DNA from: an uncultured Ignavibacteria bacterium
Lineage (GTDB): Bacteria > Zixibacteria > MSB-5A5 > SM1-73
Assembly (NCBI GenBank): GCA_964588305.1
Contig: CAZPOP010000006.1
Location: 7,465 to 71,464, forward strand
DNA: 64,000 nucleotides
Direction: 5' to 3'
This document shows, in pieces, positions 12,001 to 15,000 of the stretch (positions are counted from its first letter, which is position 1; each line of letters starts with the position of its first letter). A program made the position numbers.

Positions 12001-15000
12001 GGTGAGACTTGGACTGGTCGGTGGGCTCTTAGGAGAAGCGGACCTTTCGCAGCCCTTCTTTGGCGGTCTAGTCACGCTTTTCGGGTTTCTTGCCGTTTCG
12101 GCTATTATCGTACTTCTTAATTCCTTATTAGTTCTTCTAATCCTCAAGACCCTCTCGCTCAAAATACCCAGGGGGAAGATAGTCCAGGAGGATGAAAGGA
12201 GAACGGATCTTTTCTCCACCCCCTGGTTTGTGACCCAAAGAGTTTACCTAGTTCCCGAGGGCCGCGCCCCACCTTATATCATCACTGGAGTGTCAAGCCG
12301 CCAGGGTCTCCGACTTCAGCTTGACGAATAGACTTTGGAGTATCAAGCTTTAGCTTGATCCTGGTAAACCCAAAGGTTTACACTCCAGTTTTAGAAAGGT
12401 AGAGAGATGAAAAGAAAACAGGTGAAACTAAGATTGTATAGACGAAGGTTTTTTGAAGTTTGAAGGGAGAAGAAAGCAATGAAAACCAAACTCTTTATAA
12501 TCACAGTAATAATCGCTATGCTCGCATTTGGAGTTGTCTTGGCCCGCGGCGATGTGTGGGCACAACAAGATGACACTGACCCGGAAGCGCTTGACCCGAA
12601 GAGTCCGATAGACGCGAAGTTTTCCAACGACCCTGACAAAAAGGCTGCGGGCGGGGCTATCAACGGCGAGGAACCTGGACAGATGCTGCAAACGAAAATC
12701 CCTGATGACTCCGCTGGAACTTATCCTAAGAACGATAGTCTGAACCCCAACTACCGCGAAGTTGACGCCGTAGCCAATCGGGGGGACGCCGCATTCGGAA
12801 GGGTCATAGCTAACACCGCGACTCTGCTAATCTCAATCAAGAATGACACCAAGGTCAAGGGTTATTGGAAGGTCTGGTATGAAACCTCGGCTGGTAATAG
12901 GGGTGTGAGGTGGAACGGCGACGATTTCAATAACCCTGACAATGACAGCCTCAATGATCTAGACGGGTTGCAGCTTTATGGGGGAGCGGCTAACAGGTAC
13001 TCCGAGCAATCAGACCCTGTGGGCTCGGTCCTAAAGGGGGACGGCGCTGAGTACGTTCCGCACGCTGACATCGTAGCCGCGGTCACCTCCCTCGGGTGGA
13101 ACGGTGTTGGCGATATTGACCTTGACGCACTGATGGTCTGGGATAGGTCTCCATACGGGGAATGGAGCGCCCCGGACACGATCATCTTCAGCATCCGTGC
13201 AGCCGGCAACTGGGATGGTGGGGAAATAGTGGTTTTGCCAAGTGGGGGAACAGCGTTCTTCTTGGTCCACGGTCGTCACGAATGGAACACGGCGTTCAAC
13301 GTACGCCAGGCTTTTGGCGTGGATACCGAAGAGGTCGATGCGATCGAGGCTTATCCAACATGGTATCAACAGACCCCTACTCTCACCCAATGGGGCCTAG
13401 TCATCCTGGTGGGCCTGCTTATCCTCAGCACGGTGTTTGTCATACTCAGGAGGAGGAAAGGGCCGGTTCCTGCGTAAGCGTGGAATGCTAAGCCGTGTTC
13501 GTCTTTGATGGGGCAGAGGTTCAACCCCTGCCCCAAACGGAGACACCAGTCTTGATGAAGGTTCTCCCCAAACGCAAGGACGGTAAAATTCAATCTAAGG
13601 GTGGCATAAAGCCCCTTTCGGAAAATCCGAAAGGGGCTTAGTATTCTGAGCCGATGATTACCCCTTCCTTCCCAGGATATGAAAACACATCGACGCAGGC
13701 TGCGTCCGCAAATGTGATCTATACCCAATGTTGCTGCTGCTGCGGTTTTACGCAGGATGATGTCTACCAGGACATAATAAGCTCCACTGGAAATATAGGG
13801 CAGTTCCCCGAAGAGGAAACTCTAAGTATCCACAATTGGATTGCGGATAACTGCTCACTGTGTTCGCTTCAGATACAAATCGCCCATAAGGGTTATCTTG
13901 ACACAAGTGTAACCCCGTGGGATACGGTTTCGCCAGTCAATCCGGAAAGCGTCTCCTTTGCCTGGGCACACAAAGAGGCTCTTTTTGGCAAACACGTCAA
14001 GATATGGGTCGTGAGTTTGAGCATGCTCTCGCTTCCTCCCTCTCCCACCGGCAAGCAAAATCTAAGCCAGGAGTTGACCTATAGATGGGGTTCCAGCAGT
14101 GCTGCGGTTGTCCACGACCCCGATTGTGACATGAGTGGAACCGATAACGACCAGTACATAGTCGGATCAGATGCTAACGGTGAGTATCTGCAAGATTATT
14201 TCGGCCCGGGGATTCACGGTTACTTGCAGGGAGTGGTTTCGGTTTCTGGCCCCGGTAGGTGTGAATACTGTGCTCCTTCCTTGACTGAGTTAGGCAGGAT
14301 ATTTCTGATTGTTGTAATACTGGGCAGTGCAGTGTTCATCATGCTGCGAAGGAGAAAAACGGCAGTTCCAGCGTAAGGTCGAAATACCTGTTCTGCTCAA
14401 CCGCAGATGCAAAGCCCCTGCGCGGTCCTTCCGCAGGGGGGCTTGTCTTCTTGCCCCTTACCGCCGTCATTCTAAGCCAAAGGTCGAATTACTTTAAGCC
14501 AAACCCCCTTGGTCGCGCCCTTCGGTGTGTCTGGACCTGTAAGGATGTGCTCGAGCTCAGGGTCGAAGACTCAGCGTGACAGGTACGATTTCCGATTCTT
14601 TCGTCCCTGTTTGCTGCCTGGTGTCTGCTGAAATCTCACTTCTGTGCATTTTTTTCTTGACAAGGCATCCTGATCCCTTTATTAATATTGTGAAATAGTT
14701 CACAAATTCGGTTGGTGCTATCACGTGGTGAGCTTGTGAGTTTATTTGAGTTTTTGGGGAGGCTGAGTCCTTTCAGCAAAGGAGTTTCTATTGAAGGAGA
14801 AATCAGACAAGATGCAATCTAAAGAATCTCGCCCCCGATTGGCTGACGGCAAGGTATCTGAGTCCACGATCCGAAGGCTTTCTTTGTATTATCGCAGTTT
14901 AGTCGGTTTCGAGAAGGAAAAGTGCAAGACAGTTTCCTCTAAGGATCTTGCCAAAGAGGGGAGGTTAACCCCGGCTCAGGTCAGAAAGGACTTGTCCTTT

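Follow-up and report, generated by a model that had tools for sequence, protein, structure and literature searches.

Do the C-terminal tails shared by two neighbouring genes mark their products for sorting by an exosortase, or do they simply hold them in the membrane? The question is raised by a 64,000 nt stretch of DNA (the window) from contig CAZPOP010000006.1 of an uncultured Ignavibacteria bacterium, assigned to the Zixibacteria in GTDB. Two open reading frames (ORFs), ORF1 (12479-13477, 332 amino acids, aa) and ORF2 (13654-14376, 240 aa), lie next to each other on its plus strand, and they alone among the 452 window ORFs of at least 40 aa end in a hydrophobic stretch with a basic cluster. 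Upstream of them a gene encodes a membrane protein homologous to the membrane domain of apolipoprotein N-acyltransferase (Lnt), hereafter called LNT_N-only. Judging from sequence comparisons, the region 11492-14376 is probably (with a probability of about 0.7) part of an XrtH-type protein-sorting locus, in which the XrtH/IPTL-CTERM system takes a Zixibacterial form and includes a candidate new component.

Exosortase systems are widespread, and their chemistry, notably the target to which the cleaved protein is attached, is largely undefined. The XrtH/IPTL-CTERM system is known almost solely as database models, and among 8 million full texts a single paper names IPTL-CTERM. In an uncultured phylum, the locus offers a compact, highly conserved version of it, consisting of cargo genes, a sortase gene (present in relatives) and a third partner that is nearly constant.

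Translation of the two ORFs gave the arrangement that the initial annotation had quoted, with the proteins ending in TPTLTQWGLVILVGLLILSTVFVILRRRKGPVPA (ORF1) and APSLTELGRIFLIVVILGSAVFIMLRRRKTAVPA (ORF2). In both, a motif, a transmembrane (TM) helix and RRRK follow each other within 34 aa at the extreme C-terminus. In pairwise BLASTP the two tails proved homologous (16/33 residues identical, E=4e-8) and nothing outside of them aligned, which confirms the view that the mature domains are unrelated to each other, and restricts the proposed paralogy of the pair to the tails: by sequence, ORF1 and ORF2 share a module and are not paralogues. Compared with the IPTLxxWG pattern, TPTLTQWG of ORF1 agrees in seven of eight positions (I replaced by T), and APSLTELG of ORF2 retains P, L, T and G, with W replaced by L.

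The same tail recurs in other proteins, which the initial annotation had proposed to count. An exhaustive phmmer search of 1.84 billion cluster representatives with a 35 aa tail query (E≤1e-3) returned 81 proteins of 52-535 aa, in which every match lay within six residues of the C-terminus, and the consensus of the class was sharp ([TV]PT[LMT]TQWG-LIILVALLIASAVFIML-RRRK-AAVPA). After removal of the tails, single-linkage BLAST grouped the carriers into 24 clusters, with at least about 20 unrelated mature domains. When 84 non-redundant tails were compared with all 18,950 NCBIfam models, 71 matched the signal region of NF033207 and 30 matched TIGR04174 (IPTL_CTERM) at E≤0.01, the best at E=7.6e-6, and no further family was dominant; the cargo protein of locus L050 scored exactly the TIGR04174 cutoff of 20.5. 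NF033207, the 'midcut-by-XrtH' signal region, was also the top NCBIfam match of the ORF1 tail (19-21.5 bits, cutoff 45), although the match spans only profile positions ~31-65 of 175, and the signal is mid-protein in the model and C-terminal here. A strict DNA pattern of the tail occurred in just two GTDB species representatives, both Zixibacteria, and all homologues bearing organism names were likewise Zixibacteria. The tail thus appears to be a variant of the IPTLxxWG (IPTL-CTERM) sorting signal that is specific to Zixibacteria; the current IPTL-CTERM cutoffs miss most of its members, with consequences for annotation.

The mature domain of ORF1 places this tail among recognised sorting signals. 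The initial annotation had called both mature domains unrelated to known families, which holds for Pfam and NCBIfam, where the ORF1 domain and the part of ORF2 outside its tail had zero matches; each has, however, a metagenomic family of its own, with 190 homologues for ORF1 and 24 for ORF2. The close members of the ORF1 family bear the Zixibacterial tail. Distant homologues retain EEVDAIEA, and are followed by an IPTL-CTERM tail with IPTVSEWG (PF18203), a PEP-CTERM tail (PF07589), or a tail of the type IX secretion system (T9SS)/FlgD type (PF18962/PF13860). That homologous domains trade the tail for other recognised sorting signals would be expected if it is a sorting signal, and not if it is a generic anchor. 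Among the ORF2 homologues, P0132 and P0133 have tails of the canonical form [AI]PTLT[QE]WG, and some are tailless. The AlphaFold2 (AF2) model of ORF1 (pLDDT 89.5) has ~20 strands, and no significant PDB match was obtained for the mature domain (best E=6e-3, TM-score≤0.23). The signal peptide, a helix at residues 2-22 in the AF2 model, is kept in homologues, and a Shine-Dalgarno (SD)-like sequence GGGAGAAG lies on its 5′ side.

The enzyme itself was encountered in related loci. Exosortase genes lie 1-3 kb on the 3′ side of tail-bearing or LNT_N-only genes in L018, L021, L027/L030, L036, L039, L041 and L051, i.e. in 8 of the 22 loci with at least 3.5 kb of downstream sequence, L027 and L030 being duplicates. 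The four Zixibacterial copies scored with TIGR04177 (L018, L021, L039 and L041) reached 103-107 bits against a cutoff of 86, and ECTGLYE, NIIRM and MHLY, the Cys, Arg and His motifs conserved in the family, are present in the Zixibacterial copies. Following its TIGRFAMs product name, we take XrtH (TIGR04177) to be the exosortase specific for IPTLxxWG; the matched models themselves are named just 'exosortase H', 'midcut-by-XrtH' or 'exosortase H-associated'. In the distant relative L051, an LNT_N-only gene is followed by a gene for an 82 aa tail-bearing protein, with a TIGR04174 score of 20.2 (cutoff 20.5), and then by one for a 196 aa exosortase-family protein, which passes TIGR04178 (52.6, cutoff 23) and comes near the cutoff of TIGR04177 (80.9, cutoff 86). 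The gene after XrtH in L039 encodes an 'exosortase H-associated membrane protein' (NF041730, 49.3, cutoff 35). This family is absent from the window, and it was not matched by the small membrane ORFs that follow XrtH in L018 and L041.

Two further genes of the XrtH loci were recorded. A membrane ORF of ~156-201 aa overlaps XrtH on its 3′ side (L018 8092-8583, L021 9500-9979, L041 8808-9278, L051 8369-8974), and among these post-XrtH membrane ORFs a family match was obtained only for the L039 equivalent (NF041730). The next gene (e.g. L018 8626-9297) encodes an isochorismatase/cysteine-hydrolase-like protein of ~223-239 aa with weak RutB/BiuH matches, which could be a further component of the system.

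The upstream membrane protein, which like the ORF2 deletion and the hairpin pair described below was missed in the initial annotation, matched PF20154 with 38.6 bits (cutoff 27.1) and the lnt equivalog TIGR00546 with 19.2 bits (cutoff 132.9). No CN_hydrolase domain was matched, and the protein ends after helix 6. In Lnt the catalytic residues E267, K335 and C387 are situated in the nitrilase domain. The AF2 model shows six helices with a pLDDT of ~80-90 in the core, and Lnt accounted for each of the top 19 Foldseek hits in the PDB (~135 residues aligned, with a probability of up to 1.0), at E-values of just 0.05-1. Among the 295 homologues of the family, the best 120 are 211-339 aa long, match PF20154 only and are 60-100% identical to the window protein. 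Because the catalytic domain is absent, the label 'apolipoprotein N-acyltransferase', frequent for the family in JGI, is misleading. The conserved polar residues include E56, K94, E99, R102, R149, E167 and N210, and a cytoplasmic C-terminal motif, VYLVPEGRAPP, is also conserved. No XrtH-associated or other family-specific model of NCBIfam matched the protein. That it is itself a divergent exosortase was ruled out, as no exosortase model matched even at E≤1 and an invariant Cys or His is missing. A split Lnt, with ORF1 as substitute nitrilase domain, was likewise ruled out by the all-beta model of ORF1 without significant PDB match and by the lack of a CN_hydrolase match.

An alignment of LNT_N-only, a query unbiased as to tails, retrieved 40 metagenomic loci, some of them mutual duplicates. 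At least 1.2 kb of downstream sequence was available for 28 loci, and 27 of these had a tail-bearing gene directly 3′ of LNT_N-only, on the same strand and after a gap of 66-534 nt. Eight loci had two tail-bearing genes in tandem, with mature sizes of 81-560 aa, and 'background' tails were seen in L034 only, after a second, partial LNT_N-only copy. Whole modules are in tandem in L034 and in L057, with the order LNT_N-cargo-LNT_N-cargo-cargo in the latter. The window shares the upstream synteny PdxA/DeoB with L005, L006 and L013, and at this DeoB-adjacent slot the pair occurs in L013 and L005 with entirely different cargo. The pair was also found in an unrelated neighbourhood (transposase, RecR and DnaX in L008/L009), and retained at 31-39% identity in L051 and L052. 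LNT_N-only is therefore a conserved companion of tail-bearing cargo, and a candidate partner in the same pathway. No link between Lnt-like proteins and exosortases was found in the literature, and neither this candidate new component nor the hairpins after the cargo gene were found described in literature or databases.

If the XrtH-type sorting locus is accepted, ORF1 would be exported by Sec via its signal peptide (residues 1-28) and retained in the inner membrane by the tail. A small XrtH-family exosortase encoded outside the window would recognise PTLTxWG and cleave there, whereafter the mature domain would be released or re-attached to the cell surface. LNT_N-only might serve beside XrtH as a dedicated accessory that binds the tail helix and/or a membrane phospholipid, which is the most economical guess since it is the lipid- and substrate-binding half of an acyltransferase without the catalytic half. 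Its pairing with cargo leads to a concrete hypothesis that ties exosortase processing to a membrane lipid. More specifically, LNT_N-only might present a phospholipid acceptor for the C-terminus of XrtH-cleaved cargo, or capture the tail helix at the position of Lnt TM8, an idea which we regard as rather doubtful. If true, the former would mean a C-terminal lipid-anchoring route in bacteria, like that reported for archaeosortase and rhombosortase substrates, and either would give a first mechanistic clue to the acceptors of exosortase substrates. In the case of archaeosortase A, cleavage of the sorting signal is followed by lipid attachment. For rhombosortase, attachment of glycerophosphoethanolamine after signal cleavage is reported in the summary given in bioRxiv 10.1101/2023.06.07.544157.

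Several results weigh against the XrtH-type sorting locus. The first concern the window itself, in which scanning of all polytopic membrane ORFs detected no exosortase in the 64 kb; a sensitive profile made from seven Zixibacterial XrtH sequences (hmmsearch --max) found nothing among all window ORFs of at least 60 aa, and the closest relatives (L005, L006, L008 and L013) had no exosortase in their flanks either. XrtH is thus assumed to be encoded elsewhere in this genome. The curated hidden Markov models (HMMs) likewise fall short: ORF1 scored 14.5 bits as whole protein and 16.5 as tail alone with TIGR04174 (cutoff 20.5), and 16.6 and 18.8, respectively, with PF18203 (cutoff 20.8), and the ORF2 tail matched neither the IPTL-CTERM nor the PEP-CTERM HMM. 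The tail TM helix and the AAVPA end in the cytoplasm are very highly conserved, beyond the strict need of a cleaved signal, and no experimental demonstration of the cleavage of any IPTL-type tail was found. In the LNT_N-only alignment no Cys, His or Ser is invariant, which speaks against an enzyme. Finally, tail genes without an LNT_N-only gene nearby were seen in L012 and L010. The initial annotation had proposed the IPTL-CTERM and PEP-CTERM HMMs as the check, and had held that the tails would be ordinary membrane anchors if these models did not recognise them and no other protein of the genome shared them. Both window proteins are below cutoff or unmatched, whereas the same tail is widespread in other proteins; the verdict therefore rested on other evidence than HMM cutoffs. 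The suggestion that the tails imply an exosortase-type enzyme is upheld by the tail class, the tail swapping and XrtH in the relatives, and not by the content of the window.

In one of the tail-bearing loci without a nearby LNT_N-only gene, L012 of Zixibacteria bin-832, the protein encoded at 4775-5611 (minus strand) is 278 aa long and has a HExxH-like motif (HHELCH); 2.4 kb upstream of it are devoid of any ORF of at least 100 aa.

The extreme conservation of the tail would also fit a permanent docking helix. Here the uncleaved tail, with its TM helix and cytoplasmic RRRKAAVPA, would bind LNT_N-only much like TM8 of true Lnt, which comes after the periplasmic domain and leads back into the membrane bundle. 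A shared Lnt-like scaffold in the membrane would then carry diverse periplasmic domains, and the XrtH linkage would be of secondary importance. LNT_N-only lies beside cargo in almost all loci, the tandem modules contain both in duplicate, LNT_N-only has the conserved cytoplasmic VYLVPEGRAPP and no invariant Cys or His, and the arrangement is collinear with E. coli Lnt, LNT_N-only aligning with residues 34-189 and the tail with TM8 (487-511). The similarity between tail and TM8 is, however, weak (E~0.2), as expected of any TM helix with a basic cluster, and homology of the two was not adopted beyond a lead. Moreover, the tails best match models of XrtH substrates, XrtH is located in the locus in eight relatives, tail genes exist without an LNT_N-only neighbour (L012), the ratio of LNT_N-only to cargo is 2:3 in L057, and the ORF1 domain is all-beta and not nitrilase-like. 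On balance we consider a permanent docking helix unlikely.

Cleavage of the tail by some other enzyme, either LNT_N-only as a new intramembrane sorting enzyme or an unlinked protease, is very unlikely. Linkage to cargo is tighter for LNT_N-only (27/28 loci) than for XrtH (8/22), and LNT_N-only matches no exosortase-associated NCBIfam family, but it has no invariant nucleophile, His or protease-like motif, it folds like the half of Lnt that binds lipid, the catalytic residues being in the missing domain, and the same loci contain a bona fide XrtH. Least probable of all are ordinary inner-membrane anchors, alike by Zixibacterial descent and with LNT_N-only as inherited synteny, which would agree with the subthreshold HMM scores of both window proteins, the absence of a sortase from the window and the common PdxA/DeoB synteny upstream in the window, L005, L006 and L013, but not with the conservation of PT[LM]TQWG and AAVPA over at least about 20 unrelated domain families, the exchange of the tail for PEP-CTERM, IPTL-CTERM and T9SS signals in homologues, the adjoining XrtH genes, or the maintenance of the LNT_N-only/cargo pair in unrelated neighbourhoods and at 31-39% identity.

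The preferred XrtH-type locus resembles the known IPTL-CTERM/XrtH system (TIGR04174, PF18203, TIGR04177, NF041730) in its tripartite tail at the extreme C-terminus, the core PTLxxWG and the many unrelated secreted carriers; XrtH-substrate models match best, and relatives encode XrtH, and in one case an XrtH-associated protein, above cutoff. It differs in that Zixibacterial tails have T or V instead of I as first residue, a conserved TM sequence and AAVPA after the basic cluster, that the window tails are below cutoffs with no XrtH in the window, and that an LNT_N-only gene is near-constant upstream. The curated cutoffs exclude the window proteins from TIGR04174 and PF18203, and they are best filed beside XrtH/IPTL-CTERM, which the locus resembles in the way it works. 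The PEP-CTERM/XrtA system (TIGR02595, TIGR03109) likewise combines a signal peptide, cargo and a tripartite tail that an exosortase-family enzyme processes, and distant ORF1 homologues carry PF07589. In contrast to XrtA with its eight TM helices, the linked sortases are of XrtH type with ~190-200 aa (TIGR03109 29.8-36.9 vs 208), and the ORF1 tail scored 13.5 with TIGR02595 (cutoff 16) and has no P-E-P motif. Lnt (TIGR00546; PDB 5N6H, 8RQR) is homologous to LNT_N-only in its membrane domain, whereas LNT_N-only has six helices with ~215 conserved residues and is without the nitrilase domain, TM7 and TM8. The only experimentally studied IPTL-CTERM protein found in the literature was mela_00855, an S-layer protein of Methylomirabilis lanthanidiphila (312 aa, signal peptide 1-34, IPTL-CTERM 285-312; PMC8671808), which is like ORF1 in size and layout and belongs to another phylum (NC10). 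Its C-terminal tail was the only part undetected by proteomics (PMC8671808 supplement).

ORF2 is no longer an intact member of the cargo class. Its full-length homologues (273-293 aa) all start with a signal peptide and a Cys-rich segment DVDKPHSACPDSECW, which together make up the N-terminal ~59 residues that ORF2 lacks: the window ORF aligns from homologue residue 60 onwards, and an in-frame stop lies four codons 5′ of its ATG. The lost N-terminus was found neither in another frame nor elsewhere in the window. The 293 aa protein P0328, which falls into the same 90% cluster as ORF2, is encoded in L055 with the same synteny, and DNA alignment against this locus (~1345-1597) revealed that ~252 nt are absent from the window, with the junction near 13668. 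The absent stretch held the SD sequence, the ATG and codons 1-58. The ATG of ORF2 in the window corresponds to an intergenic GTG in L055, and thus stems from former intergenic DNA; no SD-like sequence was present on its 5′ side, and the SD sequence of full-length ORF2 is the same as that of ORF1. An assembly error is excluded, since two further assemblies contain the truncated form with identical bases. Lacking a signal peptide, ORF2 cannot be a substrate of a sorting system on the periplasmic face; it once belonged to the same cargo class and is now a non-exported remnant. Remnants of this kind would be annotated as intact genes.

The spacer between the two genes has a minimum free energy (MFE) of -78.4 kcal/mol (z=-6.06), and no Rfam family matched it. 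Both of its hairpins recur with 77-96% identity right after the first cargo gene in L018, L026, L027/L030, L036, L041, L043, L048 and L055, where the cargo is unrelated, and their stems are nearly invariant across loci. Possible roles are those of a terminator or attenuator, of an operator, or of a flank for recombination by which cargo is swapped. A dispersed repeat of the repetitive extragenic palindromic (REP) type was ruled out for hairpin A, which occurs just once in the window.

Unrelated cargo proteins have almost the same signal peptide (MKNKLFLLLVIIAVMGIAVVLNYG...), and the SD context of their genes is the same (AAGGGAGAAGAA..CA ATG), e.g. in P0268 compared with P0010/P0040, and in window 12454-12478 compared with L055 1398-1423. 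The cargo gene looks cassette-like, because both of its ends are conserved and the middle varies. As part of the rather doubtful idea that LNT_N-only presents a lipid acceptor or captures the tail helix, the conserved flanks (LNT_N-only, SD and signal peptide on one side, tail and hairpins on the other) would also turn the locus into a recombination cassette for swapping of surface proteins.

Table 1. Coordinates of features in the window.
Feature	Position	Strand	Description	Basis
Promoter-like site	11149-11176	+	TTGACA-16-TATATT, 11/12; upstream of LNT_N-only gene	consensus scan only
LNT_N-only membrane protein	11492-12331	+	279 aa, six helices, no nitrilase/CN-hydrolase domain	
ORF1 signal peptide	12479-12562	+	residues 1-28, MKTKLFIITVIIAMLAFGVVLARGDVWA then QQ	read from sequence
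ORF1 mature domain	12563-13372	+	all-beta, ends in EEVDAIEA just before tail	
ORF1 sorting tail	13373-13477	+	TPTLTQWG-LVILVGLLILSTVFVIL-RRRK-GPVPA and stop codon	
Structured spacer	13478-13653	+	176 nt, two conserved hairpins	folding
Hairpin A	13510-13534	+	GGGGCAGAGGTTCAACCCCTGCCCC, near-perfect palindrome	
Hairpin B	~13609-13639	+	terminator-like, AAAGCCCCTTTCGG-AAAAT-CCGAAAGGGGCTT	
ORF2	13654-14376	+	5′-deleted remnant of secreted Cys-rich protein of 285-293 aa	homology and DNA alignment
ORF2 tail	14272-14373	+	APSLTELG-RIFLIVVILGSAVFIML-RRRK-TAVPA	
Terminator-like hairpin	14424-14443	+	3′ of ORF2	consensus scan only
Dockerin-like-motif proteins	3307-5262, 37742-39952, 40116-41621, 41835-44153, 44708-46990	-	all five on minus strand	

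The promoter-like site may possibly mark the start of a three-gene unit. The genes surrounding ORF1 and ORF2 are of housekeeping type, i.e. LspA, PdxA, DeoB, Rex, and RsbV/RsbW-like and SpoIIE-type phosphatase genes, and between the DeoB proteins of the window and of Zixibacteria SM1_73 the identity is 82%. A block of low GC content at 20001-22000 (0.366 vs ~0.48 elsewhere) covers an ORF of 439 aa (20782-22101) and may be horizontally acquired.

Other C-terminal motifs were also observed in the window. Five large proteins of 501-772 aa share the dockerin-like C-terminal motif D.N.DG.VDV.DV.YLINYLF..G..P.CP, and in L006 a gene for a cohesin/dockerin protein lies 3′ of the cargo gene; on the basis of these proteins, the organism appears to run several surface-display systems in parallel. 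A third C-terminal sorting system of the window is represented by a 278 aa protein (34370-35206, minus strand), in which a sorting domain of T9SS type A was recognised (TIGR04183, 48 bits, cutoff 23). A secreted protein of 143 aa (15837-16268, plus strand) had zero matches in Pfam and NCBIfam, and ends in TTWGKIKALFR, as does its orthologue in L005 (5210-5641). In P0137, a member of the ORF2 family, an end with TTFGTIKALYR replaces the XrtH-type tail, which suggests that these two sequences represent a second, different C-terminal motif able to take the place of that tail.

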